Shown: piece after piece, positions 1-47,040 of the stretch
Layout: each line of letters starts with the position of its first letter
Position numbering within the stretch: the stretch's first letter is position 1
Origin: an uncultured bacterium
GTDB lineage: Bacteria > Oederibacteriota > JAAXVQ01 > JAUVAV01
Direction of reading: 5' to 3'
DNA length: 64,000 bases
Assembly (NCBI GenBank): GCA_964630235.1
Contig: CAZVUO010000001.1
Coordinates: 254,588 to 318,587, forward strand
The notes under the pieces: generated by a model
What the model was told of the DNA's origin: nothing
Databases searched by the model: none
What the model saw: the letters and a program-made list of their open reading frames with translations, nothing else
Position numbers and translations under genes: made by a program

Positions 1-3000
1 GATGTTCGTGGTCGCCAGGGCGTCGTCCATGTCCACCGTGTTCTTGGCACCCGTGGCGTCCACCTTGGCTTTGACGCCCCGGAGTTCTCCGCCCTTGAAA
101 TAGAAGCCGAACGCATCGTAATTCATATCGCCCTGCCACTGGCCGCCGCCCTTGTCCGTGAAGGTTTCGTGGGCTTTGGTCCAGTAGCCCTTGTTCTGGG
201 CCGTGCCGGTGTAGGTGTGCAGCACGCCCATGCTGTCGGTCCAGGTCTTGACGTTCCACCATTTATCCATGAGCAGCTTACCGTCGCGGGCTGAAGTGCC
301 TTCGATCTTGTCCACCCTGGCTCCGGCGTAGGTATAAGTAAAGGAACCGACACCGCCTGAACTGGTCAGCATCTTCTGCGTGGACTGGTTCCAGGTGGTG
401 ATGCCCTTGTCATCCTCGAAGGTCACGTACTCATTGACGCCGCCGAAAACATAATTGACGCTCTCGCCGTCTTCGCGCGTGCCAGTGCCCGTGGTCACGT
501 ACTGGCCGTCATTCTGGAAAGTGATCGTCTGGTTCATGGTGTCGGTGTTGTTCAGGACCCGCTGGGTCAAAACACCGGTGTCCGTATAGGTTTCGGTGCC
601 CGAGCCGTTGTGCAGGCCCATATAATCCGTGTAGGTGATATTGGCGGAGGTGTGGAAGCGTCCTTCCGGGCTGTCGGTATAGTTCCAGCTTATGGATGAA
701 CCGTCGTTATTCCGGCGGTTGCGGGTGAAGATGGCCGAATTTTCATAGCCCTCATCCATGGTCCAGGATTCCGTGCCCTGATTGTCCGTCACCGTGGCCG
801 CGATCGGACCGCGGGAGTTGAGGGTGTAGGAGAAAGTTGCGGTGGTGATGTACGTGGCCTGGGTGTAGGTGACCCGGGATACGGTCGGCAGATACATGTA
901 CTTGTCCGGATCCGGAGACGGGACAATGCCGGACATCTGCACGCTCATGGTATGCCGGTCGCCGCTGAACTCCTGCGTCCCGGCCGTGGGGTTGCCGTCC
1001 GCGTCGCGTCCGGTGTACTCGGTCACATGGATGACCTCGCCGGTCGGATATTTGTAGTCTTCGGTCCAGTTCTTGTATTCCACGCCGTGGACGTCGTAGT
1101 GGATGACTTTGTTTTCGGAATTCTGGACATTGGTCCGGGTTTCCGTCTGTTTGAAGCCTGTCCAGTCGTTATTGACAAAAGTACTGGTATAGATTTCCGT
1201 CTTTTTCTTCTTCCCGTCCTGCTTGTCACGCTGGGTGCGGGAGGCGGTCTTGCGCCCATGCATGTCATAGGCGGTGTTGTCTTCGCGGTACCCTCCCTCC
1301 CCTGTGCTGACCGTGCTCGTGGTCATGCCCGTGGCGGTATTGAATCCATAGGTGGTGTGCGTGACATTGCCGTCTTTGTCCGTGTCGTCGCTCTCCTTCA
1401 CCACGCCGTAAGTGGCGTCGTATTCATTCTTCGTGCTCCCGCGCCCGTTGCACTTGACCATGTTCGATGAGGTGTTCATGCCCGTCGAGGAATCCACGTT
1501 GTACGTGGATTCTGTATGCTGCATGCCATTGGCGCCGTAGATGCTGTCGGTCACGGAATTGGTGTTGAATCCGTCCGCATCGTAGTTCGTCATGGTCGTG
1601 GAATGGCCGGGGCTCAGGGAACGCGTCTGCGCCGCATTGCCGGTCCAGTGCACGGCTCCTGTGCGGTAGATCTCGGAATAGCGCGCGCCTGCCGCGGATC
1701 CATAGAAATTCTCGTTCTGCTTATGCAATCCGGCGGCCGGCAGGCCGTTTTCGTCCGAATACGTCCAAGTGCGGGACAGGCCGCTGGTGGTGTACTTGGA
1801 ACGGCGGATGCCCGTGTTCTGGTTCCAATCCTTGGTCCAGGTATAGCTGGTGCGGCCGGCAGTGGGGCCGATGGTGCCGTTGCTGACCGAATACATCTCC
1901 ACGCCCATCTGGTTATAATCCGAGGTGCTGTCGCCCAGGCCCGTGGTGGTGTACGTCTGCTTCTTCGATCCCGTGAAGTCGTAAATCGTGGAGACCGTGG
2001 TGGTGGAGGTGCGGGCGCGGGAAGCCCCGTAGGTCGTGTCGGTCGTCATGCTGCGGGCAATGCCGTTGATGTCGTGATTGGTGGTGGTGGTGGACAACAG
2101 CTGGCCGCCCAAACGCGAGTAGGACAGGGCCACGGACCGCTGGGTGAATCCGGTCGCGCTGTTGTAGGTCATGGTCGAGTTCGTGCGGGAAGCCAGTCCG
2201 TAAGAGGAAATATTCTCGCTGCGGATGGCCAGACCGTGCCCGTCGTAATTGGTCATGGTCGTGCCGTTGCTGTTGACGGAGGTGGATTGGATCAGTTTGC
2301 CGGTCGTCTGGTTCACCACGTAGGTAATGTTGTTGTTGACCGAATACCCCAGTGTCCAGGCCGCGTTCATGACCGTTATCGCATCGGTCTGCGTGCCAGT
2401 GTCCGAGGTGTAGTTGGTCCAGGTCTCGGACAGCGTGCCGCCTCCGCCGTAGGACCGGCTGTACGTTTCCATGTTGAGGCCGGTGTTGGTATTGGCGTCA
2501 ACATTTGTTTCCACGTTGCGATTGCCTTCGCCGGTGGCGTATTTATTATAGGTCAGCATGTGCTTGGCCACGCCGTACTTGGCGTCGAAGGCATCGGTGG
2601 TGGTGGTGGACAGGCCGTTGTCAGCCACCGTCCGGATATTCAAGCCCGTATCGTGGCTGGCGGTGATGGTCGTGTTGGTGGTCTGCGCCAGGGTGGGCAG
2701 GAAGTCCGTCACGCTGATGGAGCTGGTCGCCGTTCCATAACTGCCCTCGAAGAAGGTCGTGGTGGTGCGGTGCGATGTAACCGCGATGGTTTTTTCGTTC
2801 AGGCCGGTCTGGCGGTTGGCGGTGATGGTCGTGGTGATATCCCGCTCGCCCAGCACGCCCCACTGATTGTGCGCGACTGAGCGTTCGGCCACGCCGTAGG
2901 TGTCTCTGCTGTAATAGGTGTCGGTGGTCCCATACTGGTTGGTGGCGAAGGTGTGCTCGTTCAAACCGCTGTCGCGGTTGGCGGTAATGGTGGTGTTGGT

Positions 3001-6000
3001 ATCCATGGTGTAACCCAGCCCGAAATTGTTCACACTGTGCGAACGTTCCGCCACGCCATACCCGTCGCCCGAATACCAGGTTTCGGTCAGGCCATAGGTG
3101 TTCCTGCCCGAGGTAAACGTATTCAGACCGCTCCAATTATCGGCCGTGATCGTGGTGTTGGTGTCCCGCGTATACCCCAGGCCGTAGTTGTTGAGGGAGT
3201 GCGAACGCTGGGCCGTGCCATAGGTGTCCTGCTTGAACCAGGTTTCGGTGGTGCCATAGGCGTTGACTGAACTGGTGAAAGTGTTCAAGCCGCTCCACAG
3301 GTCCACCGTGATGGTGGTGTTGGTGTCGCGGGTCGCGCCCAGGCCGTAATTGTTCACGGCATGCGACCGCTGCGCCACGCCGTACGAGTCCCCGGTATAC
3401 CAGGTCTCGGACGTTCCATACCGGTTGACGGCGCTGGTGTAGGTGTTCAGGCCGCTCCACCGGTCCGCCGTGATCGTGGTGTTGGTGTCGCGGGTCGCGC
3501 CCAGGCCGTAATTGTTCACGGCATGCGACCGCTCCGCCACGCCGTAGCTGTCCCGCGAATACCAGGTTTCGTTGGTTCCGTAAGCATTCCGCGCGAACGT
3601 GTACTCATTGAGGCCGTTCCACCGGTTCGCCTGGATGGTGGGTGTGTCCGTGTCACGCGTCGCGCCCAAGCCGAAATTATTCACCGCGTGCGACCGCGTC
3701 GCCACGCCGTACGTGTCCTGCGCGTACCAGGTCTCGGTCCGGCCGTACGCACTGACTGCATGGGTATAGGTATTCAGGCCGTTCCACCGGTCCGCCGTAA
3801 TGGTCGTGTTGGAGTCCCGTCCGGCGCCCACGCCAAAATTGTTCACGGAGTGGGAGCGTTCCGCTACGCCGTACGTGTCCTGGGAGTACCAGGTTTCGGT
3901 GGTGCCATAGGCATTGGTCCCGGTCGTGTAAACGTTCAGGCCGCTCCAGGTGTCGGCGGTGATGGTGCTGTTGGTGTCCCGCGTGGCGCCCAGCCCGAAA
4001 TTGTTCATGCTGTGGGACCGTTGGGCCGTGCCATAGGTGTCCTGTGAATACCAGGTCTCCGTGGTGCTGTAGGCATTGACCGAACTGGTGAAGGTGTTCA
4101 AGCCGCTCCAGCGGTCCACGGTGACGGTGGTGTTGGAATCGCGCGTGGCGCCCAGACCAAAGTTGTTCACACTGTGCGAGCGTTCGGCCACGCCGTAGGA
4201 GTCCGATGCATACCACGTTTCGGTCCGGCCGTAGGCGTTGGTCGCGTTGGTGTAGGTGTTCAGACCGTTCCAGCGGTCCGCCGTAATCGTCGTGTTCGTG
4301 TCGCGGCTGGCGCCCAGCCCGTAGTTATTCACGCTGTGCGACCGTTCCGCCACGGCATACGTATCCTGGCTGTACCACGTTTCCGTCGTGCCATAGGCGT
4401 TGACGCCTACGGTAAACGTGTTCAGGCCGTTCCAGCGGTCCGCGGTGATGGTGGACGTGGTGTCGCGGGTCGCGCCCAGCCCGTAATGGTTGATGCTGTG
4501 CGACCGCTCCGCCACGGCATACGTATCCTGGCTGTACCACGTTTCCGTCGTGCCATACGCATTGCTGGCGATGGTGTAGTCATTGAGGCCGTCCCACCGG
4601 TCCGCGGTGACAGTCGTGTTCGTGTCGCGCGTCGCGCCCAGGCCAAAGTTGCTCAGACTGTGCGACCGTTCCGCCACGCCGTACGTGTCCTGCGAATACC
4701 AGGTCTCGGTCGTGCTATAGGCGTTGACGGCATTGGTGTAGGTGTTCAGGCCGTTCCAGCGGTCCGCCGTGATGGTCGTATTGGTGTCGCGCGTCGCGCC
4801 CAGCCCGAAGTTGTTCAGGCTGTGCGACCGTTCCGCCACGCCGTAGCTGTCCTGCGAATACCAGGTCTCGGTCCGGCCGTAGGCATTGGTCGCGTTGGTG
4901 TAGGTGTTCAGGCCGTTCCAGCGGTCCGCCGTGATCGTCGTATTGGTGTCGCGCGTCGCGCCCAGCCCGAAGTTGTTCAGGCTGTGCGACCGTTCCGCCA
5001 CGCCGTAGCTGTCCTGCGAATACCAGGTCTCGGTCCGGCCGTAGGCATTGGTCGCGTTGGTGTAGGTGTTCAGGCCGTTCCAGCGGTCCGCCGTGATCGT
5101 CGTATTGGTGTCGCGCGTCGCGCCCAGCCCGAAGTTGTTCAGGCTGTGCGACCGTTCCGCCACGCCGTAGCTGTCCTGCGAATACCAGGTCTCGGTCCGG
5201 CCGTAGGCATTGGTCGCGTTGGTGTAGGTGTTCAGGCCGTTCCAGCGGTCCGCCGTGATGGTCGTATTGGTGTCACGCGTCGCGCCCAGCCCGAAGTTGT
5301 TCAGACTGTGCGACCGTTCCGCCACGCCGTAGCTGTCCTGCGAATACCAGGTCTCGGTCACGCCATACGCATTCACGGCATTGGTGTAGGTATTCAGCCC
5401 GTTCCAATTGTCGGCCGTAATGGCCGTGGTGGTGTCGCGGCCGGCGCCGACGCCAAAGTTATTGACGGAATGCGACCGTTCAGCCGTGCCAAAGCTATCC
5501 TGCTTGTACCAGGTCTCGGTCCGTCCGTAGGCGTTGGTGGCCACGGTATAATCGTTCAGTCCGTTCCAGCGGTCCGCCGTGATCGTCGTATTGGTGTCGC
5601 GCGTCGCGCCCAGCCCGAAGTTGTTCAGGCTGTGCGACCGTTCCGCCACGCCGTAGCTGTCCTGGGTGTACCAGGTTTCCGTCGTGCCGTAGGCATTGGT
5701 GGCGAAGGTGTACGTGTTGAGCCCGCTCCAGCGATCCGCTTGGACCGTGGTGTTGGTGTCGCGCGTCGCGCCCAGCCCAAAGTTGTTCAGGCTGTGCGAC
5801 CGTTCCGCCACGCCGTAGCTGTCCTGTGTATACCAGGTTTCCGTCGTGCCATAGGCATTGGTGGCGAAGGTGTAGTCGTTCAAGCCGTTCCAGCGGTCCG
5901 CCGTGATGGTCGTGTTCGTGTCGCGCGTCGCGCCCAGCCCAAAGTTGTTCAGGCTGTGCGACCGCTCGGGAACGCCGTAGGTGTCGCGGGCATACCAGGT

Positions 6001-9000
6001 TTCGGTCATGCCATAGGCGTTGGTGGCCACGGAATATGTATTGAGGCCGTTCCAGGTGTCGGCGGTGACTTGGGTCGTGGTGTCGCGCGTCGCGCCCAGA
6101 CCATAATTATTGACCGTATGGGTGCGTTCCGTGACGCCATATGAATCTTGCGTAAACCAGGTCTCGGTCATGCCGTAGGCGTTGGTGCCGATGGAGTAGT
6201 CGTTCAACCCGTTCCAGCGATCCGCGGTGATGACCGTGTTCGTGTCCCGCGTGGCCCCGATGCCGAAATTGTTCAGGCTGTGGGACCGCTCCGCCACGCC
6301 ATACGTATCGTCCGTGTACCAGGTCTCGGTCATGCCGTACGCGTTCACGGCGTGGGTGTATTCATTCAGGCCGTCCCACCGGTCCGCCTGGATGGTGGTA
6401 TTCGTGTCACGGGATGCGCCGATGCCAAAATTGTTGAGGCTGTGCGACCGCTCCGCCACGCCGTACGTGTCCTCCGAATACCAGGTTTCCGTGATGCCGT
6501 ATGCATTGCTGGCAAAGGTATACTCATTCAGGCCGTCCCACCGGTCCGCCTGGATGGTGGTCGTGGTGTCGCGGGTCGCGCCCAGACCAAAGTTGTTCAA
6601 ACTGTGCGACTGCTCCGCCACGCCGTACGTGTCCTGCGAATACCAGGTCTCCGTCGTACCGTAGGCATTGGTGGCAAACGTGTACTCGTTTAAACCGTCC
6701 CACCGGTCCGCGGTGATGACCGTGTTCGTGTCCCGCGTGGCTCCGATGCCGAAATTGTTCACCGCATGCGACCGCTCCGCCACGCCGTACGTGTCCTGTG
6801 AATACCAGGTCTCGGTCATGCCGTAGACATTGGTCGCGATGGTGTAATCGTTCAGACCGTCCCACCGGTCCGCGGTAATGACCGTGTTGGTGTCCCGCGT
6901 GGCCCCGATGCCGTAGTTGTTCACCGCATGCGACCGCTCCGCCACGCCGTACGTGTCCTGCGAATACCAGGTCTCGGTCACACCGTAGGCGTTTTGAGAG
7001 ATCGTATAATCATTCAGGCCGTCCCACCGGTCCGCGGTAATGACCGTGTTGGTGTCCCGCGTCGCGCCCAATCCGTAGTTATTCATCGCGTGCGACCGTT
7101 CCGCCACGCCGTAGGTGTCGTCGGAGTACCAGGTTTCGGTCGTGCCGTAGGCATTGGTGCCGAAGGTGTATTCGTTCAGCCCGTCCCACCGGTCCGCCTG
7201 AATGGTCGTCAGGTTGTCGCGGGTCGCGCCCAGGCCAAAGTTGTTCAGGCTGTGCGACCGCTCCGCCACGCCGTACGTGTCCTGCGAATACCAGGTCTCC
7301 GTCGTACCGTAGGCATTGGTGGCAAACGTGTACTCGTTTAAACCGTCCCACCGGTCCGCCTGAATGGTGGTCATGGTATCCCGCGTCGCGCCCAAGCCGA
7401 AGTTATTCACCGCGTGGGACCGCTCCGCCACGCCATACGTGTCTTCCGAGAACCACGTCTCGGTCATCCCGTAGGCGTTGGTTGCCAGGGTGTACTCATT
7501 TAAACCATCCCACCGGTCTGCCTGAATGGTCGTAGCGGTATCCCGGGTCGCTCCAATGCCGAAATTGTTCACCGCGTGCGACCGCTCCGCCACGCCGTAG
7601 CTGTCCTGTGAATACCAGGTCTCGGTCACGCCATAGGCATTGGTCCCAATGGTGTAATCATTCAACCCATCCCAGCGGTCCGCCGTGATGATGGTGTTGG
7701 TGTCCCGCGTGGCGCCGATGCCGTAGTTGTTCACCGCATGCGACCGTTCCGCCACGCCGTAGGTGTCGTCCGAGTACCAGGTTTCCGTCATGCCGTACGC
7801 ATTCACGGCATGCGTGTAATTGTTCAACCCATCCCAGCGATCCGCGTCAATGGTCGTGTTCGTGTCCCGCGTCGCGCCCAACCCGAAATTGTTAAGGGAA
7901 TGCGAGCGCACCGCCACCCCGTAGGAATCTTCCGAGAACCAGGTTTCGGTGGTGCCATAGGCATTGGTGCCGAAGGTGTATTCGTTCAGGCCGTCCCACC
8001 GGTCCGCCTGAATCGTGGTTTGGTTGTCGCGGGTCGCACCCAAGCCGAAGTTGTTCACGGCGTGCGACCGTTCGGCCACGCCGTAGGTGTCTTCCGAGAA
8101 CCAGGTTTCGGTCATGCCATAGGCGTTTACGGCCATGGTATACTCGTTCAAACCGTCCCACCGGTCCGCCTGAATGTCCGTGGTGGTGTCCCGCGTCGCG
8201 CCAATACCGAAGTTGTTCATGGCGTGCGACCGTTCCGCCACGCCGTACGTATCCTGCGAGTACCAGGTCTCGGTCGTGCCATAGACGTTCACGGCATACG
8301 TGTAATCATTTAAGCCGTCCCACCGGTCGGCCGTAATGGTGGTATTCGTGTCCCGGGTGGCGCCGATGCCGAAGTTATTCAGGCTGTGAGAACGTTCGGC
8401 CACGCCGTACGTGTCGTCGGAATACCAGGTCTCGGTCGTGCCGTATGCATTGGTGGCCAGGGTATAGTCGTTCAAGCCGTCCCATTGTCCGGCCTGAATG
8501 ATGGTGTTGGTGTCCCGGGTGGCCCCCAGTCCATAGTTATTCACGCTATGGGAACGTTCGGCCACGCCGTAGCTGTCTTGTGTGAACCAGGTTTCAGTCA
8601 TGCCGTACGCATTGACGGCCCGGGTATATTCATTCAGGCCGTTCCAGGTATCCACCTGAATCGTCGTGTTGGTGTCGCGCGTCGCGCCCAGACCATAATT
8701 ATTCAAGCTGTGTGACCGTTCCGCCACGCCGTAGCTGTCCTGGGTATACCAAGTTTCCGTCATGCCATAGGCATTTTCGGCCAGCGTGTGCTCGGTCAAT
8801 CCATCCCACGTGTCGGTATCAATGTCCGTGGTCGTATCCCGCGTGGCGCCAATCCCGTAATTATTCAGGCTATGAGACCGGTCCGCGACGCCATAAGAGT
8901 CCTCCGTGTACCAGGTCTCCGTCATGCCGTAATCATTCGTGGCTTTGGTATAGATGTTCAGACCGTTCCAGCGGTTGGCATCAATCTGCGTCGTGGTATC

Positions 9001-12000
9001 CCGCGTGGCGCCAATGCCGAAGTTATTCAGGCTGTGCGAACGCTCGGCCACGCCGTAGCTGTCCGTGGAATACCAGGTCTCCACGGTGCCGTAGGCGCTC
9101 TCCGAGAACGTCCGGATGTTCAAGCCGTTGAAGGTGTTGACCTCCATATTGCCTTCTTTGATCCAGCTGTGCCGCGTCGCACCCAACCCGAAGTTGTTGT
9201 TCGTATCCGAGGACTTGGCCACGCCGTACGCGGCGTCGTCATACCACGTTTCCACGGTGCCGTACGCGCTTTCCGAGAACGTCCGGATGTTCAGGCCGTT
9301 CCAGGTATTGACCTCCATATTGCCCTTGGAAATCCAGCTGTGCCGCGTCGCGCCCAACCCGAAGAAGTTATTCGTATCCGAAGAGTGGGCCACACCGTAA
9401 TCCTTGTCATCGTACCAGGTTTCGACGGTGCCGTAGGCGCTCTCCGAGAACGTCCGGATGTTCAGGCCGTTCCAGGTGTTGACCTCCATATTGCCCTTGG
9501 AAATCCAGCTGTGCCGCGTCGCGCCCAACCCGTAATTATTGTTGGTGTCCGAGGACTGCGCCACGCCGTACTGCTGATCTTCATACCACGTCTCAACCGT
9601 GCCGTATTCGCTCTCCGAGAACGTCCGGATGTTCAAGCCGTTCCAGGTGTTGACCTCCAGATTGCCGTCGCTGATCCAGCTGTGCCGGGTCGCCCCCAGC
9701 CCGAAGTTGTTGTTCGTATCCGAGGAACGCGCCACGCCGTAAGACACGTCATCGTACCAAGTTTCGACCGTTCCGTACGCGCTCTCCGAGAAGGTGTGCT
9801 GGTTCAAGCCGTTCCAGGTATTGACTTCCATGTTGCCTTCTTCGATCCAGCTGTGCCGCGTCGCGCCCAACCCGAAGTTGTTGTTCGTATCCGAGGACTT
9901 GGCCACGCCATAGGTTTCGTTTTCATATTGGGTTTCCGTCGTGCCGTACGCGCTTTCGGAGAACGTGCGCTTGTTCAATCCGTTATACGGATCGACTTCC
10001 ATTTCCCCTTCCTTGATCCAGCTGTGCCGGGTCGCCCCCAGTCCGAAGTTGTTGACCGTATCCGAGGCCTTGGCAATGCCGTACTGCGCGTCGTCGTACC
10101 AGGTTTCCACCGTGCCGTACGCGCTCTCCGAGAACGTCCGGATGTTCAGGCCGTTCCAGGTGTTGATCTCCATTTTGCCTTCCTTGATCCAGCTGTGCCG
10201 GGTCGCCCCCAGCCCGAAGTTATTGTTCGTATCCGAAGCCTTGGCCACACCGTGCTGTTTATCTTCGTACCAGGTTTCCACCGTGCCGTACGCGCTCTCC
10301 GAGAAGGTGTGCTGGTTCAAGCCGTTCCAGGTATTGACCGCCATATTCCCGCGCTTAATCCAGCTGTGCTGGGTGGCGCCCAGGCCGAAATTATTATTGG
10401 TGTCCGACGCGACCGCCACGCCATATTGGGCGTCCTCATACCAAGTCTCCGTGGTTCCGTACTCACTCTCCGAGAACGTCCTCTGGTTCAGGCCGTTCCA
10501 GGTGTTGACCTGCATGTTGCCTTCTTTGATCCAGCTGTGCCGCGTGGCGATCAATCCGAAATTGTTGTTCGTGTCCGAAGCCTTGGCCACGCCGTACTGG
10601 CCGTCGTCGTACCAGGTCTCGGTCGTGCCGTACGCGCTCTCCGAGAACGTCCGGATATTCAATCCGTTGTAGGTGTTGACCTCCATATTGCCTTCTTTGA
10701 TCCAGCTGTGCCGCGTCGCACCCAGGCCGAAGTTGTTGTTCGTGTCCGAAGCCTTGGCCACGCCGTACTGGCCGTCGTCGTACCAGGTCTCGGTCGTGCC
10801 GTACGCGCTCTCCGAGAACGTCCGGATGTTCAAGCCGTTCCAGGTGTTGACCTGCATATTGCCTTCTTTGATCCAGCTGTGCCGCGTCGCGCCCAACCCG
10901 AAGTTGTTATTCGTGTCCGAGGCGACTGCCACGCCAAACTGGCCGTCTTCGTACCAGGTCTCGGTCGTGCCGTACGCGCTCTCCGAGAACGTCCGGATGT
11001 TCAAGCCGTTCCAGGTGTTGACCTGCATATTGCCTTCTTTGATCCAGCTGTGCCGCGTCGCGCCCAACCCGAAGTTGTTGTTCGTGTCCGAGGCGACTGC
11101 CACGCCGTACTGGCCGTCTTCGTACCAGGTCTCGGTCGTGCCGTACGCGCTCTCCGAGAACGTCCGGATGTTCAGGCCGTTCCAGGTGTTGACCTCCATG
11201 TTCCCGTTTTTGATCCAGCTGTGCCGCGTCGCGCCCAACCCGAAGTTGTTATTCGTGTCCGAGGCCCTGGCCACCCCGTACTGGCCGTCGTCGTACCAGG
11301 TCTCGGTCGTGCCGTACGCGCTCTCCGAGAACGTCCGGATATTGAGGCCGTTGTAGGTGTTGACCTCCATGTTGCCTTCTTTGATCCAGCTGTGCCGCGT
11401 CGCGCCCAACCCGAAGTTGTTGTTCGTGTCCGAGGATTTGGCCACGCCGTACTGGCCGTCTTCGTACCAGGTCTCGGTCGTGCCGTATGCGCTCTCCGAG
11501 AACGTCCGGATATTGAGGCCGTTGTAGGTGTTGACCTCCATGTTGCCTTCTTTGATCCAGCTGTGCCGCGTCGCGCCCAGGCCGAAGTTGTTCTTGGTAT
11601 CCGAGGATTTGGCGACGCCGTGTTCCTCATCGTCGTACCAGGTCTCGGTCGTGCCGTACGCGCTCTCCGAGAAGGTCCGGATATTCAAGCCGTTGAAAGT
11701 GTTGACCTCCATGTTGCCTTCGGAAATCCAGCTGTGCCGTGTCGCGCCCAACCCGAAGTTGTTCTTGGTATCCGAGGATTTGGCGACTCCGTGTTCCTTA
11801 TCGTCGTACCAGGTTTCGGTCGTGCCGTACGCGCTCTCCGAGAAGGTCCGGATGTTCAGGCCGTTCCAGGTGTTGACCTCCATGTCGCCGTCTTTGATCC
11901 AGCTGTGCCGCGTCGCGCCCAGGCCGAAGTTGTTGTTCGTATCCGAAGCCTTGGCCACGCCAAACTGGCCGTCTTCGTACCAGGTCTCGGTCGTGCCGTA

Positions 12001-15000
12001 CGCGCTTTCCGAGAAGGTCCGGATGTTCAAGCCGTTGAAGGTGTTAACTTCCATGTTCCCGTCTTTGATCCAGCTGTGCCGCGTCGCGCCCAGGCCGAAG
12101 TTGTTGTTCGTATCCGAAGCCTTGGCCACGCCAAACTGGCCGTCTTCGTACCAGGTCTCGGTCGTGCCGTACGCGCTTTCCGAGAAGGTCCGGATGTTCA
12201 AGCCGTTGAAGGTGTTAACTTCCATGTTCCCGTCTTTGATCCAGCTGTGCCGCGTCGCGCCCAGGCCGAAGTTGTTGTTCGTATCCGAAGCCTTGGCCAC
12301 GCCAAATTGGCTGTCGTCATACCAGGTTTCAGTCGTGCCGTACGCGCTCTCCGAAAGCGTCCGGATGTTCAGGCCATTGAAGGTGTTGACCTGCAAATTG
12401 CCCTCTGCGATCCAGCTGTGCCGCGTCGCGCCCAGGCCGAAGTTGTTTTTGGTATCCGAGGAGGTGGCCACGCCGTACTGACTGTCTTCGTACTTGGTTT
12501 CGGTCGTGCCGTAGGCGCTCTCGGAAAGGGTGCGCCGGGTCAGACCGTTCCAGGTGTTGACTTCCATATTGCCTTCACTGATCCAGGAATGGCGCGTCGC
12601 GCCCAACCCAAACTTGTTGTTGGTATCCGACCGCTTGGCCACGCCGTACGCCTCATCTTCATACCAGGTCTCGGTCGTGCCGTAGGCGCTTTCCGATAAT
12701 GTCCGCTTGTTCAGTCCGTTGTCGGTATTGACTTCCAGGTTGCCGTCGCCAATCCAGCTGTGCCGCGTCGCGCCCAGGCCGAAGTTGTTGTTCGTGTCCG
12801 AAGATTTGGCCACGCCAAATTGTTTGTCGTCATACTTTGTCTCGGTCGTGCCATAGGCACTCTCCGAGAACGTGCGGATGTTCAGGCCGTTGAAGGTGTT
12901 GACCTGCAGGTTGCCTTCCTTGATCCAGCTGTGCCGGGAAGCACCCAAACCAAAATTGTTCTTTGTGTCCGAGGCTTTGGCGACCCCGTACTGGCCGTCC
13001 TCGTACCAGGTCTCGGTGGTGCCGTATTCGCTGCGCGACAGCGTATGCTGATTCAGTCCATTCCAAAGGTTCACCGTGAGATCGCCCTTGCGGATCTGGC
13101 TCTGGCGGGTGGACCCCAGGCCGAAATAATTTTCGGTTATCGAACTGATGGCCACGCCATAGGTGCCGCCTGCGGTCGTGTCGAATTCAGTCATGGTCAT
13201 GCCGTACTTGTTCGCGGCCTTGGTGCGCTTGTTCAAGCCGGTATTGATATCCGCTTCAATCGCCGTGGCGGTGTCCCGCGTAAAGCCAAGACCGAAATTG
13301 GTCACCGCCCGGCTGGAAACCGCAATGCCGTACACCCCGCCCTGCTCCACGTCGTAGTGGGTCTCGGTCTTGCCGTACTCATTCTTGGCAAGGGTATGGC
13401 GCGTGAGACCGTGGCGGGTATCCATTTCCACTTCGTTTTCGGTATACCGGGTCGCCCCCAAACCGTAGTTGTTGCTGATCTGCTGCAGGCTTTCCAGACC
13501 GGTCACCGGGTCGAAATTGGTGCTGTGCGTGGTGCCATAGTTGCTCTTGGACAGACGGTCCGTGGTCATGCCCGTGTCGGAATTGTAGGTGGCCACCGTA
13601 AACGACTCGCGGGAGGCTCCCAACCCGATGGTCGCGATCCGCAGGCTCTCGACCGCATCGCCGTGAATGTCATAGGTGCTGGTGGTCTGTCCCAGACGGT
13701 CGGTGGTCACGTTGGTCTGCAGGCGGCCGTGGCCGTCGTAGGCGTAGTCCTCCGTCACTTTGTACCGTCCGAAAAGCACGCCATAATTGTCATTCTGCTT
13801 CTGCTCCTGCACCAGCGCGTCCCGGTCCATGGTTTTTTCGACCGTGGTCAGCAGATTTTTACTCTTAGAGACCGTCATAAAGCCCTGGTCGTCAAATTCG
13901 TTAACCGTGAGGGTTTCGCGCGAGAACTCGACGCCGTAGTGGTCGGTGCGGAAGGATTCGATCGGCAGACCATCAATATTAAATTTGGTGACCGTGGAGC
14001 CGCGCAGATCGGTCTCCTTGCTCATGGAAAGGAATCCGTCGTTGTCGTACTCGTTCACGGTCCACTGGTCGCGGGCATGGCCGTAGAGGTTGTGCCGGAA
14101 GGAAACCGCGACCAGTTCGTCAATGTTGAACCAGTTCTGGGTGGTCCCGTTCTCATCCTCGGTTTTGCTGTAGACCATGTACGCGTTGGCGTCGTACTCG
14201 TAGGTGGTGCGCTCTTCCCGCGGGAACCCGTATTTCTTCACGCGGCGGCTTTCCTTCATCAGGCCGTCTTTATCAAAGGTATTGTAGGTTGTGCCCCGAT
14301 CGTCGTCGGTAATGCTGCTGACCAGTTCGCCGTTCAGATAATCATAGGTGGTCTTCTTGCGTTTGGGATAACCGTGAATGTCAACCCGTTCGCTTTCCGT
14401 CATCAGACCGTCGTGGTCGAACTTGTTGATCGTGTAACCGCGGCTGTCCGTCTGCCGGCTCTCGGTGAGATCGCCGCCCGCATCGTAAATGTTCTCCACC
14501 CAGTGTTCCCGGGGGAATCCGTGTTTGTTGATGCGGTGGGTCTTCTTGGCTTGCTCGTTCTGGTCAAATTCAGTGATCGTTTCGCCCTTCACGTCCCGGG
14601 AAACGCTTTTAATTAGAATGCCGTCCTTGTAGGTCCGCTCCTCGTCCGACCGCCGGGGGAATCCGATGGTATTGATGCGCGTGATCTTTTCCGGATCGCC
14701 GTGGCTGTTATAGAAAGTGTGCGTCTCCCCTTTTTTGTCAATCATCAGTGATTGCGACAGCACGCCTTTTTCATACTGGAAATCCGTCTGCTGGGTGCGC
14801 CCCCACTTGTCCGTCTGCAGGGATTGCAGCGGCTTGCCGGCGGCGTTGTACAGGGTCTCGGTCACGCCCATGGGGCCTTCTTCGGTGCTCCTGACCAGGT
14901 GCTCGCCCGCATATTCATAATCCGTGGTGATGACCTTGCCGTTGTACTTGCTGTAAATGACCTTCTCCGGCTGGTCGCTCTGGGAATCCCGGTAAATGGT

Positions 15001-16524
15001 GGTCTTGATCCCGAAGGGGGTAACGGTATAGGACACCCGTTTCCCGTCCTGGGTGGCGCCGTAGGTGGTTACCTCCATCACCCCGCTGTTCTTGATCATG
15101 ACCTTGCGTTCGGCCAGCTTGGTTTTCTGGTCGTACTCGGTCAAGGTGCGGCTTTTGTAATCCCGGGTGACGCTGGAAACCATGTTGTTGTTGTCGTCAT
15201 ACGTATATTCCGTGACTTCGTCCCCAACTTGGCTGCGGATCCGGTTGCCCTTGCCGTCGTAGGCGTAGTCCGTCCGCTGCCCGTTGCTGTCGGTCTTGCT
15301 CAACAGGTGGCCTTTGCCGTCAAAGGTCTTCTTCACCGTATCCGTGAAGACTTTGCCGCCGAAGGAGTACGTGACGTATTCAATCGCCGAAACAACGTTT
15401 CCGTTTTCATCCAAGATATTGCTGATCTTGGTCTTGCGGCCTTCCTCCTCCAGCCCGACGACCCGGCCGGCCTCGTCGTAATACGTCACCTTCTCCTTGG
15501 TTTTTGATCCATCGGCCGGTTTGAGTAATTCACGCCGGGCGGTAATCCGCCCGTCCACGTTGACCTCGTAGGTATAATTGTGCTCGCCGTCCTTGTCCTG
15601 CACCCTGACCACGCGGCCCTGGTCGTCGTAATCCTTGACCGTGATGTCCTCGATCATGCCGCTAGCGGTGGCGACCTGCTTGATCTCCTTCTTTTGCGCC
15701 AGAACGCCCTTTTCGTTCAGGATGTTCTCATAGGTGGTCTTCTGGCCGTTCTCGATCTGTTCCACCATCTGGTCGTTCTCGTATTTCTTGATCGTGATAT
15801 TTCCCGCCGTGTCCCGTTCTGTGGTCTGGATCTTCTCCCCTTGCTGGTTGTACAGCGTTTCAATGTCCGTGCGGATGTTGTTCTCGTCAATGCGGGCGAC
15901 CACTTCGCCGTTCACGGGGTCCAGGATCATGCGGTTGGTTTTATTCGTGGCGAGATCGGTTTCGGTGTAGCCGACGGTCTTGCCCTTGTCGTTCTTGACG
16001 TAGTTGGTGAATATTTTGGTCCCCTGGGAATCCGTGGCTTGGACCGGATTGCCGTCGTCGTCAAAGATCTTCGTGACCACGCCGGCCGCGCTGCGTTTCA
16101 CCATTTTTTGCAGTTTCCCGTTGGCGCCGCGGAAATACTGGTAGCGCGCCAGGACACCGCCGGTGGCGTCCCGCTCCTCCGACGGCATCCCATCTTCGTA
16201 AAGGGTAACTTTGCCGTAGGGATCACGCACTTCCGTTAGCTGTCCCTTCTCGTTATACTTACGCACCTCGCCGCTCAACAGCACGACCGTGATTTGGGGT
16301 TGGCCGCTGACATCCATGACCGTCGTGCTTTTTACTTTTTTGCCTTGCTCATCCAACTGCTCCAGTATCTGAGGCAGGAGGCGCTCCTCGGCGCTACTGG
16401 CGGCAGAGGACATAGAAACCCCTACAAAGAGGAGCAGCGTCCCCAGTAGGGCGAGTGTCCCCAGCCAGGCGGTTTTATTCCACAGTCCAAAATGCATCCG
16501 TTCTTGACCAGTGATGGTAATCAT
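1..16524 (-). CDS. Giant RHS/YD-repeat family surface or secreted protein. The 3' end is cut by the window edge (at least 5508 codons present).
   Basis: Hand translation of the minus frame whose codon first bases fall on coordinates divisible by 3. ATG at 16524 is preceded by AAAGGGGG 8 nt upstream. The N-terminus MITITGQERMHFGLWNKTAWLGTLALLGTLLLFVGVSMSSAASSAEE is a hydrophobic signal/anchor. Classic YD motifs occur, e.g. TDYAYDGKGNRIRSQVGDEVTEYTYDDNNNMVSSV at about 15170-15280. The frame was re-checked at 13983, 11982, 4863 and 1-60 and stays open. No minus ORF in this frame appears in the track, as expected when the stop lies outside the window. Confidence 0.85.
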   Translation of the reverse strand, partial: MITITGQERMHFGLWNKTAWLGTLALLGTLLLFVGVSMSSAASSAEERLLPQILEQLDEQGKKVKSTTVMDVSGQPQITVVLLSGEVRKYNEKGQLTEVRDPYGKVTLYEDGMPSEERDATGGVLARYQYFRGANGKLQKMVKRSAAGVVTKIFDDDGNPVQATDSQGTKIFTNYVKNDKGKTVGYTETDLATNKTNRMILDPVNGEVVARIDENNIRTDIETLYNQQGEKIQTTERDTAGNITIKKYENDQMVEQIENGQKTTYENILNEKGVLAQKKEIKQVATASGMIEDITVKDYDDQGRVVRVQDKDGEHNYTYEVNVDGRITARRELLKPADGSKTKEKVTYYDEAGRVVGLEEEGRKTKISNILDENGNVVSAIEYVTYSFGGKVFTDTVKKTFDGKGHLLSKTDSNGQRTDYAYDGKGNRIRSQVGDEVTEYTYDDNNNMVSSVTRDYKSRTLTEYDQKTKLAERKVMIKNSGVMEVTTYGATQDGKRVSYTVTPFGIKTTIYRDSQSDQPEKVIYSKYNGKVITTDYEYAGEHLVRSTEEGPMGVTETLYNAAGKPLQSLQTDKWGRTQQTDFQYEKGVLSQSLMIDKKGETHTFYNSHGDPEKITRINTIGFPRRSDEERTYKDGILIKSVSRDVKGETITEFDQNEQAKKTHRINKHGFPREHWVENIYDAGGDLTESRQTDSRGYTINKFDHDGLMTESERVDIHGYPKRKKTTYDYLNGELVSSITDDDRGTTYNTFDKDGLMKESRRVKKYGFPREERTTYEYDANAYMVYSKTEDENGTTQNWFNIDELVAVSFRHNLYGHARDQWTVNEYDNDGFLSMSKETDLRGSTVTKFNIDGLPIESFRTDHYGVEFSRETLTVNEFDDQGFMTVSKSKNLLTTVEKTMDRDALVQEQKQNDNYGVLFGRYKVTEDYAYDGHGRLQTNVTTDRLGQTTSTYDIHGDAVESLRIATIGLGASRESFTVATYNSDTGMTTDRLSKSNYGTTHSTNFDPVTGLESLQQISNNYGLGATRYTENEVEMDTRHGLTRHTLAKNEYGKTETHYDVEQGGVYGIAVSSRAVTNFGLGFTRDTATAIEADINTGLNKRTKAANKYGMTMTEFDTTAGGTYGVAISSITENYFGLGSTRQSQIRKGDLTVNLWNGLNQHTLSRSEYGTTETWYEDGQYGVAKASDTKNNFGLGASRHSWIKEGNLQVNTFNGLNIRTFSESAYGTTETKYDDKQFGVAKSSDTNNNFGLGATRHSWIGDGNLEVNTDNGLNKRTLSESAYGTTETWYEDEAYGVAKRSDTNNKFGLGATRHSWISEGNMEVNTWNGLTRRTLSESAYGTTETKYEDSQYGVATSSDTKNNFGLGATRHSWIAEGNLQVNTFNGLNIRTLSESAYGTTETWYDDSQFGVAKASDTNNNFGLGATRHSWIKDGNMEVNTFNGLNIRTFSESAYGTTETWYEDGQFGVAKASDTNNNFGLGATRHSWIKDGNMEVNTFNGLNIRTFSESAYGTTETWYEDGQFGVAKASDTNNNFGLGATRHSWIKDGDMEVNTWNGLNIRTFSESAYGTTETWYDDKEHGVAKSSDTKNNFGLGATRHSWISEGNMEVNTFNGLNIRTFSESAYGTTETWYDDEEHGVAKSSDTKNNFGLGATRHSWIKEGNMEVNTYNGLNIRTFSESAYGTTETWYEDGQYGVAKSSDTNNNFGLGATRHSWIKEGNMEVNTYNGLNIRTFSESAYGTTETWYDDGQYGVARASDTNNNFGLGATRHSWIKNGNMEVNTWNGLNIRTFSESAYGTTETWYEDGQYGVAVASDTNNNFGLGATRHSWIKEGNMQVNTWNGLNIRTFSESAYGTTETWYEDGQFGVAVASDTNNNFGLGATRHSWIKEGNMQVNTWNGLNIRTFSESAYGTTETWYDDGQYGVAKASDTNNNFGLGATRHSWIKEGNMEVNTYNGLNIRTFSESAYGTTETWYDDGQYGVAKASDTNNNFGLIATRHSWIKEGNMQVNTWNGLNQRTFSESEYGTTETWYEDAQYGVAVASDTNNNFGLGATQHSWIKRGNMAVNTWNGLNQHTFSESAYGTVETWYEDKQHGVAKASDTNNNFGLGATRHSWIKEGKMEINTWNGLNIRTFSESAYGTVETWYDDAQYGIAKASDTVNNFGLGATRHSWIKEGEMEVDPYNGLNKRTFSESAYGTTETQYENETYGVAKSSDTNNNFGLGATRHSWIEEGNMEVNTWNGLNQHTFSESAYGTVETWYDDVSYGVARSSDTNNNFGLGATRHSWISDGNLEVNTWNGLNIRTFSESEYGTVETWYEDQQYGVAQSSDTNNNYGLGATRHSWISKGNMEVNTWNGLNIRTFSESAYGTVETWYDDKDYGVAHSSDTNNFFGLGATRHSWISKGNMEVNTWNGLNIRTFSESAYGTVETWYDDAAYGVAKSSDTNNNFGLGATRHSWIKEGNMEVNTFNGLNIRTFSESAYGTVETWYSTDSYGVAERSHSLNNFGIGATRDTTTQIDANRWNGLNIYTKATNDYGMTETWYTEDSYGVADRSHSLNNYGIGATRDTTTDIDTDTWDGLTEHTLAENAYGMTETWYTQDSYGVAERSHSLNNYGLGATRDTNTTIQVDTWNGLNEYTRAVNAYGMTETWFTQDSYGVAERSHSVNNYGLGATRDTNTIIQAGQWDGLNDYTLATNAYGTTETWYSDDTYGVAERSHSLNNFGIGATRDTNTTITADRWDGLNDYTYAVNVYGTTETWYSQDTYGVAERSHAMNNFGIGATRDTTTDIQADRWDGLNEYTMAVNAYGMTETWFSEDTYGVAERSHAVNNFGLGATRDNQTTIQADRWDGLNEYTFGTNAYGTTETWFSEDSYGVAVRSHSLNNFGLGATRDTNTTIDADRWDGLNNYTHAVNAYGMTETWYSDDTYGVAERSHAVNNYGIGATRDTNTIITADRWDGLNDYTIGTNAYGVTETWYSQDSYGVAERSHAVNNFGIGATRDTATTIQADRWDGLNEYTLATNAYGMTETWFSEDTYGVAERSHAVNNFGLGATRDTMTTIQADRWDGLNEYTFATNAYGTTETWYSQDTYGVAERSHSLNNFGLGATRDNLTTIQADRWDGLNEYTFGTNAYGTTETWYSDDTYGVAERSHAMNNYGLGATRDTNTVITADRWDGLNDYTISQNAYGVTETWYSQDTYGVAERSHAVNNYGIGATRDTNTVITADRWDGLNDYTIATNVYGMTETWYSQDTYGVAERSHAVNNFGIGATRDTNTVITADRWDGLNEYTFATNAYGTTETWYSQDTYGVAEQSHSLNNFGLGATRDTTTTIQADRWDGLNEYTFASNAYGITETWYSEDTYGVAERSHSLNNFGIGASRDTNTTIQADRWDGLNEYTHAVNAYGMTETWYTDDTYGVAERSHSLNNFGIGATRDTNTVITADRWNGLNDYSIGTNAYGMTETWFTQDSYGVTERTHTVNNYGLGATRDTTTQVTADTWNGLNTYSVATNAYGMTETWYARDTYGVPERSHSLNNFGLGATRDTNTTITADRWNGLNDYTFATNAYGTTETWYTQDSYGVAERSHSLNNFGLGATRDTNTTVQADRWSGLNTYTFATNAYGTTETWYTQDSYGVAERSHSLNNFGLGATRDTNTTITADRWNGLNDYTVATNAYGRTETWYKQDSFGTAERSHSVNNFGVGAGRDTTTAITADNWNGLNTYTNAVNAYGVTETWYSQDSYGVAERSHSLNNFGLGATRDTNTTITADRWNGLNTYTNATNAYGRTETWYSQDSYGVAERSHSLNNFGLGATRDTNTTITADRWNGLNTYTNATNAYGRTETWYSQDSYGVAERSHSLNNFGLGATRDTNTTITADRWNGLNTYTNATNAYGRTETWYSQDSYGVAERSHSLNNFGLGATRDTNTTITADRWNGLNTYTNAVNAYSTTETWYSQDTYGVAERSHSLSNFGLGATRDTNTTVTADRWDGLNDYTIASNAYGTTETWYSQDTYAVAERSHSINHYGLGATRDTTSTITADRWNGLNTFTVGVNAYGTTETWYSQDTYAVAERSHSVNNYGLGASRDTNTTITADRWNGLNTYTNATNAYGRTETWYASDSYGVAERSHSVNNFGLGATRDSNTTVTVDRWSGLNTFTSSVNAYSTTETWYSQDTYGTAQRSHSMNNFGLGATRDTNSTITADTWSGLNVYTTGTNAYGTTETWYSQDTYGVAERSHSVNNFGVGAGRDSNTTITADRWNGLNTYTHAVSAYGRTETWYAQDTYGVATRSHAVNNFGLGATRDTDTPTIQANRWNGLNEYTFARNAYGTNETWYSRDSYGVAERSHAVNNYGLGATRDTNTTITADRWSGLNTYTSAVNRYGTSETWYTGDSYGVAQRSHAVNNYGLGATRDTNTTITVDLWSGLNTFTSSVNAYGTTETWFKQDTYGTAQRSHSLNNYGLGYTRDTNTTITADNWSGLNTFTSGRNTYGLTETWYSGDGYGVAERSHSVNNFGLGYTMDTNTTITANRDSGLNEHTFATNQYGTTDTYYSRDTYGVAERSVAHNQWGVLGERDITTTITANRQTGLNEKTIAVTSHRTTTTFFEGSYGTATSSISVTDFLPTLAQTTNTTITASHDTGLNIRTVADNGLSTTTTDAFDAKYGVAKHMLTYNKYATGEGNRNVETNVDANTNTGLNMETYSRSYGGGGTLSETWTNYTSDTGTQTDAITVMNAAWTLGYSVNNNITYVVNQTTGKLIQSTSVNSNGTTMTNYDGHGLAIRSENISSYGLASRTNSTMTYNSATGFTQRSVALSYSRLGGQLLSTTTTNHDINGIARSMTTDTTYGASRARTSTTTVSTIYDFTGSKKQTYTTTGLGDSTSDYNQMGVEMYSVSNGTIGPTAGRTSYTWTKDWNQNTGIRRSKYTTSGLSRTWTYSDENGLPAAGLHKQNENFYGSAAGARYSEIYRTGAVHWTGNAAQTRSLSPGHSTTMTNYDADGFNTNSVTDSIYGANGMQHTESTYNVDSSTGMNTSSNMVKCNGRGSTKNEYDATYGVVKESDDTDKDGNVTHTTYGFNTATGMTTSTVSTGEGGYREDNTAYDMHGRKTASRTQRDKQDGKKKKTEIYTSTFVNNDWTGFKQTETRTNVQNSENKVIHYDVHGVEYKNWTEDYKYPTGEVIHVTEYTGRDADGNPTAGTQEFSGDRHTMSVQMSGIVPSPDPDKYMYLPTVSRVTYTQATYITTATFSYTLNSRGPIAATVTDNQGTESWTMDEGYENSAIFTRNRRNNDGSSISWNYTDSPEGRFHTSANITYTDYMGLHNGSGTETYTDTGVLTQRVLNNTDTMNQTITFQNDGQYVTTGTGTREDGESVNYVFGGVNEYVTFEDDKGITTWNQSTQKMLTSSGGVGSFTYTYAGARVDKIEGTSARDGKLLMDKWWNVKTWTDSMGVLHTYTGTAQNKGYWTKAHETFTDKGGGQWQGDMNYDAFGFYFKGGELRGVKAKVDATGAKNTVDMDDALATTNI
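2600..9075 (-). repeat. In-frame tandem array of 162-bp (54-aa) units inside giant gene 1, about 40 copies.
   Basis: The word ggtgtcgcgcgtcgcgcc recurs at 4783 and 4945 (162 bp apart). Unit consensus is YSQDSYGVAERSHSLNNFGLGATRDTNTTITADRWNGLNTYTNATNAYGRTETW. It shares the NNFGLGATR and AYG-TETW cores with the 57-aa unit. The switch between unit types is at about 9070-9080. Confidence 0.9.
9075..13650 (-). repeat. In-frame tandem array of 171-bp (57-aa) units inside giant gene 1. About 23 regular copies (9075-13090) plus degenerate copies up to about 13650.
   Basis: The word cttggccacgcc recurs at 11950 and 12121 (171 bp apart). Unit consensus is YEDGQFGVAKASDTNNNFGLGATRHSWIKDGNMEVNTFNGLNIRTFSESAYGTTETW. 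Older copies (NYGLGATRYTENEVEMDTRHGL...) are visible toward 13650. Confidence 0.9.
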
Positions 16525-18646: not shown

Positions 18647-18650
18647 GAAA

Positions 18651-18678
18651 CCCGGCTTCCCGTTTCCGGGAAACCGGG
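18651..18678. terminator. GC-rich hairpin between the convergent lnt copy 1 and giant gene 2. It is a canonical intrinsic terminator when read on the minus strand.
   Basis: CCCGGCTTCCCG-TTTC-CGGGAAACCGGG forms an 11-bp stem with one mismatch. On the minus strand the hairpin is followed by TTTCTTATTTT. Confidence 0.6.
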
Positions 18679-18701
18679 CTCCTGTGTTCACTCCGTCCGT
18701 T

Positions 18702-44802: not shown

Positions 44803-44872
44803 GGGAGAATTATAGCACAAGGGTCCGTGTTTGGTGGAGGCCGACCCGGACTTAAGTTCCTCCCAGGGGCCC

Positions 44873-44995
44873 CATGGAGCCCCCCGGGCAAAGCCCGGGG
44901 TACCAACTGCACCTCTCGTTACCTCCTCTGGGCGACATCCCCGGAGCAACCATTCCGCATTCACCCCCAAGGCAAGGGGTGCCCTGCGGAGAGGA
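44873..44995. repeat. Conserved intergenic element, copy A (paired with 50014..50119).
   Basis: 83 of 94 aligned nt are identical to copy B. It contains the hairpin CCCCGGGC-AAA-GCCCGGGG. It lies between the divergent lnt copy 2 and the transketolase N-subunit gene. Confidence 0.7.
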
Positions 44996-45210
44996 TGGCC
45001 GGGGTTCCCTCCCGCAGCAAAAATCATATCCCGCAATTCCATCCCTGGAGCGGTCTTTGGGGTCGCTGAAGCCCGGGGAATTGTGCGGTGGGATCGTTTT
45101 TGGACTCCCTCCGCTTTTCGTTGGGGCGTCCCCGGCCAGGGGCTTTTAACGCTTGACAAAGCCCGGAGGGGTCTAGTACGATTCTCCGCATATTTTCCGG
45201 AGGTTTTTCC

Positions 45211-46044: not shown

Positions 46045-46065
46045 TTTTCGGCGAGGAATTGTTCC

Positions 46066-47001: not shown

Positions 47002-47040
47002 GATTTTCCAGCCTGCTGCTTTCCTGCTAAACACCCGCCA

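Follow-up and report, generated by a model that had tools for sequence, protein, structure and literature searches.

A giant gene with N-terminal YD repeats and a long array of 54-57-residue units in an uncultured bacterium: a putative envelope fibre rather than a toxin container

Where YD/RHS repeats occur in a protein, they are nearly always taken for the wall of a toxin container. The stretch of DNA analysed here (64,000 nt of contig CAZVUO010000001.1, assembly GCA_964630235.1, from an uncultured bacterium; hereafter the window) raises the question of whether that reading holds for the giant minus-strand gene at its left end, whose product begins with YD repeats, continues through thousands of residues of regular units and runs out of the window. 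On balance, we take this gene to encode a structural or adhesive fibre of the envelope or cell surface, specific to its lineage, and not a toxin container.

Translation of the minus frame from the ATG at 16524-16522 to base 1 gave 5,508 codons with zero stops, and an in-frame stop is present upstream of the ATG. The GC content at codon positions 1/2/3 was 0.48/0.48/0.82, the third-position value (GC3) being like that of the real genes of the window (0.75-0.84). Seven long plus-strand open reading frames (ORFs) between 1516 and 16239 were tested; all lie at one common frame offset relative to the giant gene, with GC1 of 0.78-0.86 and GC3 of 0.43-0.57, and the shared offset and mirrored codon-position GC identify them as antisense shadows. 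A first-pass annotation of the window, made from the letters alone, had proposed both the giant gene leaving the window and the shadow nature of the plus-strand ORFs, and had named a stop or frameshift as grounds for abandoning the gene; re-translation of the 16.5 kb shows neither. Full-length relatives run past the position matching base 1, so ~650 amino acids (aa) are estimated to lie beyond the window, and by this comparison the gene's stop is located to the left of it. An exact 50-mer of the window's left end had no match in genome and metagenome contig sets. The gene and the parts of its product are as follows.

1..16524, minus strand: partial coding sequence of the giant gene, codons 1-5508 of an estimated ~6,150 (open frame, GC3, collinear homologues)
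16396..16524, minus strand: Sec-type signal or signal-anchor, aa 1-43, with hydrophobic core aa 19-38 AWLGTLALLGTLLLFVGVSM followed by SSA/AS
14593..16167, minus strand: canonical YD/RHS-repeat region, aa ~120-644 (Pfam, TIGR01643, family YD profile, hhalign)
13135..14592, minus strand: proto-units, aa 645-1130, divergent 54-57-aa copies with HGFPRE, YGHARD or IGLGASRE motifs (unit profile, blastp)
9031..13134, minus strand: 24 units of 57 aa, aa 1131-2498, consensus NNNFGLGATRHSWIKEGNMEVNTWNGLNIRTFSESAYGTTETWYEDGQYGVAKASDT (Tandem Repeats Finder and direct parsing)
2872..9030, minus strand: 38 units of 54 aa (one of 55 aa), aa 2499-4551 (Tandem Repeats Finder and direct parsing)
1225..2871, minus strand: decaying units, aa 4552-5100, Thr/Ser/Asn-rich (unit profile)
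1..1224, minus strand: first part of a conserved non-repeat C-terminal domain, aa 5101-5508, cut by the window edge (family conservation)

The N-terminal segment is conserved in the family to which the protein belongs, W20, L21, A25, G28, L30, L32, F33, G35, V36, S37, S39 and A41 being invariant (alignment A2), and the signal or anchor peptide seen at first pass, hydrophobic stretch and SSA/AS alike, is kept across the family. The YD repeats that follow are genuine. Within aa 1-1100, PF05593 (RHS_repeat) matched with E 3.8e-14 and 53.1 bits (cut-off 22; best stretch aa 401-429/430) and TIGR01643 with E 1.7e-7 and 31.5 bits (cut-off 15.8), and both signals were restricted to these N-terminal 1,100 aa. 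A profile of the C-terminal YD module found in other family members matched aa 120-644 and beyond it nothing significantly. A profile of the family's N-terminus weakly matched the solved Rhs sequences 7q97, Tse5 and Tre23 in the PDB, and the single N-terminal sequence gave no useful match to PDB sequences. By profile, the window protein is a member of the YD-repeat superfamily. The RHS/YD profile search proposed at first pass was positive with both models, and the canonical YD repeats were correctly placed at the N-terminus; their claimed extent of ~900 aa reduces to aa ~120-640. At ~520 aa, this stretch compares with ~1,000 aa of contiguous hairpins in a closed YD shell. PF25023 (TEN_YD-shell) was unreported by Pfam for any piece of the window protein; it is present among the precomputed matches of ordinary RHS proteins.

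The bulk of the protein is a tandem array, in which Tandem Repeats Finder detected 23.1 copies of 171 nt at 9071-13026 and 37.5 copies of 162 nt at 3014-9096. The consensus of the 54-aa unit is LNNFGLGATRDTNTTITADRWNGLNxYTxATNAYGxTETWYSQDxYGVAERSHS, for which there is no Pfam or NCBIfam model. Matches reported in the repeat body (DUF1120, ULD, SinI, Cullin_binding and others) were rejected as sums of tiny per-repeat scores with no passing stretch. A hidden Markov model (HMM) built from 292 units of seven family members matched aa 620-1020 at 34 bits and four stretches of aa 4560-5100 at 47 bits, blastp aligned aa 717-1130 with the 57-aa array (E 1e-23), and two looser 57-aa units were recognized at aa 1017-1130; in the decaying units (aa 4552-5100) Pfam and NCBIfam found no family matches. 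Strict units total ~3,420 aa, or ~3,540 aa with the two looser units, and the decayed units past aa 4551 add little. The regular array of 57/54-aa units described at first pass is real and its length near the ~3700 aa proposed; the units cannot be recognized as YD by sequence.

Mean pairwise differences at codon positions 1/2/3 were 0.13/0.10/0.34 among the 57-aa units and 0.17/0.15/0.43 among the 54-aa units, for an overall unit-to-unit DNA difference of 16-23%. The two- to threefold excess at third positions shows that the units are selected protein modules and not recent assembly duplicates: they are under purifying selection. Units 49-51 (window ~4810-5295, aa 3744-3905), three 54-aa units in a row, have the same protein sequence, a sign of recent local duplication in an array that has otherwise diverged. 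The same composite array is present in an independently assembled related metagenome-assembled genome (MAG), L009, which is 81% identical over aa 1764-5508 and has the same 57-then-54 order, which rules out an artefact of assembly.

An exhaustive phmmer search with the C-terminal 900 aa recovered 21 cluster representatives among 1.84 billion, the full-length proteins being of 4,547-6,209 aa. Word-indexed searches gave no match with the C-terminal 908 aa and a single 302-aa fragment with the unit profile, because Thr/Asn/Gly-rich words saturate the candidate list. Four partial homologues of the N-terminus (48-56% identity) were found, one named 'RHS repeat protein, partial [candidate division FCPU426 bacterium]', and more distant N-terminal matches were ordinary RHS proteins with PF05593 and PF25023; fragments of the family carry the public names 'RHS repeat protein, partial', 'YD repeat-containing protein' and 'hypothetical protein'. 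Nine loci were located in GTDB genomes, mostly MAGs of the candidate phylum FCPU426 together with one Candidatus Goldiibacteriota MAG. By sequence similarity this is a small family, found so far in FCPU426, Candidatus Goldiibacteriota and further MAGs only, and no description of it was found in the literature searched on FCPU426, Goldbacteria and giant or YD proteins. Seventeen Logan contigs of ~5-50 kb also carry the locus, with the neighbouring lnt gene, and end inside the repeats. Six of them (L001-L006, ~21 kb; DRR358088, SRR29900433, SRR29900435, SRR29900438, SRR29900440 and SRR29900444) stop at aa ~1250 of the giant gene and ~5,050-5,160 aa from the end of the second giant gene of the window (giant2), at the onset of near-identical repeats; breakage of these contigs at repeats means that public protein sets hold truncated versions only.

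The architecture of the family is collinear: an N-terminal signal or anchor, ~520 aa of YD repeats, ~480 aa of proto-units, an array in which a 53-63-aa unit recurs 33-64 times, ~550 aa of decayed units and a conserved non-repeat region. With the near-orthologue P0014 (6,209 aa), identity is 89.5% across the N-terminal 1,130 aa and 67.8% across the final 954 aa. Array composition varies among such close relatives, P0014 having 58 x 57 + 3 x 54 units and the window protein ~24 x 57 + 38 x 54. Residues 5101-5508, which align with 10 family members at 40-72% identity and with 47 columns invariant, form the 408 aa inside the window of a conserved non-repeat region of ~650-700 aa in the family. They had been described at first pass as further YD-like sequence, for which profile comparison gives no support; a WD40-like origin was likewise set aside, the PDB sequence matches of this region being weak and to designed WD40-like propellers only (E 2e-5, no single stretch passing). 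Past the position matching base 1, where 646 aa follow in P0014 and 521-899 aa in other relatives, come the rest of the conserved domain and a variable region. A linker of low complexity, rich in Ala, Pro and Glu, is next, then a helical domain and ~200 aa of canonical YD sequence (TIGR01643), and these relatives end in a conserved tail (...LFGDPRMDxMRLD...).

That the units themselves are YD repeats is not borne out by sequence profiles. The unit HMM scored 0 bits on the canonical YD region, shuffle level on the C-terminal YD module and at most 4 bits on nine ordinary RHS proteins, level with shuffled sequences. Comparison of unit and YD profiles by hhalign gave probabilities of 5.7% and 0.1%, against 97.8% for the YD-versus-YD positive control, and the unit profile found no useful match among PDB sequences. 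The proposal that each 54-aa unit comprises three degenerate YD repeats was dropped, the HMM and HMM-HMM comparisons giving it no support. Likeness to the YD shell wall appears in the predicted fold alone. Five 54-aa units were modelled with AlphaFold2 (AF2) from a multiple sequence alignment (MSA) of paralogous and orthologous unit windows, giving a predicted local distance difference test score (pLDDT) of 81.8 and a predicted template modelling score (pTM) of 0.67, with four beta-strands and one short helical turn per unit. In a Foldseek search of the PDB with this model, the top 25 matches were all Rhs, teneurin or Tc-BC shells (E 6e-8 to 1e-4, probability 0.99-1.0), followed by the single-layer sheets of OspA and by SGS1. 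A model of ten 57-aa units from a shallow MSA (pLDDT 50) returned the same Foldseek list and serves as a consistency check only. As modelled, the units look like the wall of a YD shell without being recognizable YD repeats.

These observations are consistent with the following scheme. The protein would be exported by the Sec route through its conserved N-terminal hydrophobic segment and would remain at the envelope, either attached or associated. The unit array may form a single unbroken antiparallel sheet of beta-hairpins, as in the walls of Rhs, teneurin and Tc shells, drawn out into a long rod, ribbon or tube; at 4.8 Å per strand and ~250-330 strands, its length would be ~35 nm if coiled as in an Rhs shell and ~120 nm or more if extended. 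Placed at the far end, the conserved C-terminal domains would make up the interacting part, and the protein probably cooperates with the neighbouring giant membrane proteins of 7-8 kaa encoded in this genome and in three related ones. A surface-fibre role of this sort recalls the giant RTX adhesins of diderms, LapA, MpIBP and SiiE, which also have several thousand residues, a regular repeat stalk and distinct terminal domains. Unlike them, the window protein has a Sec signal in place of a type I secretion system (T1SS) architecture, and no Ig-like domain was found in the pieces scanned (Pfam, NCBIfam). Neither an Ig-like nor an RTX Pfam match was obtained in the window protein or the C-termini of relatives, the regular expression for the RTX nonapeptide (GGxGxDxUx) gave zero hits in six full-length relatives, and there was no T1SS gene among the neighbouring genes scanned.

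Several points weigh against a fibre. The most serious is that no route is evident for a ~6,000-aa protein across the outer membrane of a diderm cell; autotransporter and two-partner secretion domains, Por_Secre_tail and RTX repeats were not found (Pfam scans; RTX regular expression in relatives). The function and location proposed for the family are read from sequence, and the C-terminus of the window gene is reconstructed from relatives that are 68-81% identical. The non-repeat head (aa 5101-5508) has no informative homologue, and profile comparison links it to neither the YD repeats nor the unit. On the structural side, one of the five AF2 models was confident, the other four scoring ~47-55, from an MSA of paralogous repeats. 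The Foldseek TM-scores are low (TMq 0.15-0.38), so that the likeness is one of local sheet and not of a closed shell, and the predicted model does not fix rod against tube geometry.

The genes nearest to the giant gene are as follows.

16985-18646, plus strand: lnt, 553 aa, with an Lnt domain, between the two giant genes and in the same position on P0014's contig
18702-42839, minus strand: giant2, 8,045 aa, the other giant gene of the window
43183-47034, minus strand: 1,283-aa ORF with an Lnt domain in its C-terminal half, just upstream of giant2

Along P0014's contig run a giant gene (7,316 aa), lnt on the opposite strand, the present gene (6,209 aa) and another giant (7,124 aa), in that order. 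The first three match giant2, lnt and the present gene in the window, which makes a third giant gene probable beyond base 1; it probably starts a few hundred bases past the stop. A same-strand giant2 paralogue, 34-39% identical over the aligned N-terminal stretch, also follows the gene in L009 (13332-21077) and L011 (3861-8498), the FCPU426 relatives nearest to the window. This conserved linkage to giant2-type genes, the YD modules at both ends, the shell-forming nature of the Foldseek matches and the single short helical turn per unit would all suit a coiling of the array into a hollow tube, walled as in Rhs proteins and closed off by the YD modules of the two termini, that acts as conduit or container in a contact apparatus with the giant membrane proteins. 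The helical turn recalls the 'regularly interspaced exterior alpha helices' of the giant Omnitrophota proteins, predicted to form 'antiparallel beta-helix tubules' with Rhs-like sheets and spaced short helices (West-Roberts et al., bioRxiv 10.1101/2023.11.21.568195). Compared by description, and with both structures predicted, the Omnitrophota giants share with this family uncultured hosts, long unannotated all-beta repeats and giant-gene neighbours, and among functional analogies their tubules are the closest in predicted fold; they differ in phylum, in being at least five times longer (>30,000 aa), and in having many transmembrane segments and loci resembling type II secretion systems. Against a tube stand the low TM-scores to closed shells, the matches to OspA-type flat single-layer sheets as well, and the lack of any known cargo candidate, and we regard it as unlikely. 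Its boldest form, in which the 60-plus units make an Rhs-walled pipe tens of nanometres long, closed by YD ends and joined with the two flanking multi-pass membrane giants of 7-8 kaa, both devoid of Pfam domains, in an undescribed envelope-spanning contact or delivery apparatus specific to FCPU426/Goldbacteria, is similarly doubtful.

To about the same small degree, the protein may never reach the surface, serving instead as a scaffold or spacer in the periplasm or within the envelope, where an N-terminal helix that stays uncleaved would hold it in the inner membrane. The hydrophobic segment is unusually long (~20 residues) and conserved, no outer-membrane secretion signal was recognized, and lnt genes are conserved neighbours, all of which would fit; a rod of at least 35 nm, on the other hand, is longer than the periplasm is typically wide and would have to run along the membrane, and the C-terminal tail shows the conservation expected of a sorting signal.

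The reading that the YD repeats first suggest, a canonical Rhs polymorphic toxin whose YD cage surrounds a C-terminal toxin past the window edge with an immunity gene next to it, is very improbable. It draws on the genuine N-terminal YD repeats, on the ordinary RHS proteins among the distant matches and on the resemblance of the predicted unit fold to Rhs shells, and the homologues contradict it already. The Rhs core motif PxxxxDPxG[LWF], which directs autoproteolysis, and the cleavage motif PVxxxxGE of the N-terminal plug (defined in bioRxiv 10.1101/2024.02.26.582050), together with the shorter DPxG[LWF], occurred in none of 11 family sequences (the 5,508 aa of the window and 10 relatives, nine with complete C-termini), whereas of the nine ordinary RHS proteins that served as control, six have the core motif. 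In the relatives' C-termini there was no match to TIGR03696 and NF041261 reached 38 bits against a cut-off of 2,000; no Pfam toxin domain was found in the four C-termini searched, and the C-terminal 250 aa are conserved family-wide and not polymorphic. No immunity-like gene lies downstream in the relatives examined (L009, L011-L014 and P0014's contig), where the downstream genes are giants or, in L012 and L014, aroA-hisD-hisC (aroA in L013); same-strand ORFs of sizes that match these genes are present in L015 and L016, and ispD-ispF lie upstream in L007 and L008. In the more distant members, the gene occupies a stable chromosomal site without secretion, immunity or mobile genes. PAAR, VgrG and Tc domains were found neither in the protein (Pfam, NCBIfam) nor in the neighbouring genes scanned. 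The toxin tip that the first pass placed, if there is one, beyond the window is missing from every relative whose C-terminus is known.

With the Rhs and Tc containers (RhsA 7q97, Tse5 8cp6, Tre23 7pq5, Tc BC 4igl) the family shares N-terminal YD repeats and, in relatives, C-terminal ones too; the predicted unit fold resembles their shell wall at the level of the local sheet. It differs from them in lacking autocleavage motifs, the Rhs-associated core, toxin, immunity gene and PAAR/VgrG/TcA partner, in a canonical YD stretch that falls short of the roughly 1,000 aa or more of a closed shell, in the ~4,400 aa of 54-57-aa unit that YD profiles do not recognize, and in its conserved C-terminus; every defining feature of Rhs toxin containers that was tested is absent, those of the C-terminus having been tested on relatives. 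WapA of Bacillus subtilis (~2,300 aa) has an N-terminal Sec signal, YD repeats, an RHS core with a tRNase toxin and an immunity partner, and is exported to the envelope without a type VI secretion system; the window protein shares the Sec signal followed by YD repeats, and WapA is without an array of 54-aa units. Teneurins and bacterial teneurin-like proteins (6fb3, 8r54, 9ifo) and mosquito SGS1 (8fjp), anchored or type II proteins with a YD-shell beta-sheet and roles that are adhesive and not purely toxic, rank among the top structural matches of the unit model. Teneurin-like or WapA-like anchored YD proteins count, with the giant repetitive adhesins and the Omnitrophota tubules, as the nearest functional analogies. 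Teneurins, however, have one closed shell with a beta-propeller, FN-plug and Tox-GHH or ABD, and none has a regular array of 60 units.

It is scarcely credible that the locus results from repeats collapsed or wrongly joined in assembly, or that it is a pseudogene in decay: all 17 Logan contigs do break where near-identical units begin, yet the 16.5 kb hold no stop or frameshift, the 16-23% DNA difference between units carries the third-position excess, and the independent assemblies L009 and P0014 have collinear arrays of similar size.

Upstream of the giant gene, two candidate expression signals sit within a 460-bp AT-rich spacer that is common to the divergent lnt.

16540-16533, minus strand: candidate ribosome-binding site AAAGGGGG, eight bases 5' of the start (consensus match only)
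16623-16595, minus strand: promoter-like TTGTAA-17-TATACT, a -35/-10-like pair (consensus match only)

A lipobox cysteine is absent from the N-terminus of both giants. Neither half of giant2 matched a Pfam family at E <= 1e-3. By eye, giant2 shows hydrophobic clusters at aa ~760-1080, 4800-5060, 7380-7480 and 7800-7850, ~18 repeats of ~98 aa (aa 2780-4700), long coiled-coil-like stretches, and helicase- or SecA-like AGGGKT and DEVH motifs near aa 6236 and 6349. A 311-aa ORF at 17756-18691 (minus strand) lies wholly within lnt on the other strand, has no Pfam match and is most likely a shadow ORF. Further along the window, a protein with a type IX secretion system (T9SS) C-terminal sorting domain (53336-54361), an OmpA-family protein (51491-53320) and a FadL/UPF0164-like protein (54457-55395; a weak match, below the Pfam cut-off) are encoded by adjoining minus-strand genes. 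PF18962 (Por_Secre_tail) is present in the first of these, although none was found in the C-termini of the giant gene's relatives. The OmpA, FadL-like and T9SS-tail proteins and the two Lnt domains together indicate a diderm envelope, and the first three point to T9SS-type cargo in a candidate phylum. A likely heptose or lipopolysaccharide sugar cluster occupies 56-63 kb, where an 830-aa ORF without a Pfam match (56843-59335, minus strand) stands among glycosyltransferase, SIS, HAD and nucleotidyl-transferase genes.

The family keeps YD modules at both ends without core protease, toxin or immunity gene, and places ~4,400 residues of an unmodelled repeat between them. If the predicted fold holds, the YD-type beta-sheet would be usable, beyond closed cages, as an open-ended material for very long fibres or tubes. 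The gene cluster includes at least one other giant in the window and, by synteny, probably three giants of ~21,000 codons in total. In a host phylum without a cultured member, it offers a concrete target for the study of giant bacterial proteins outside Omnitrophota.

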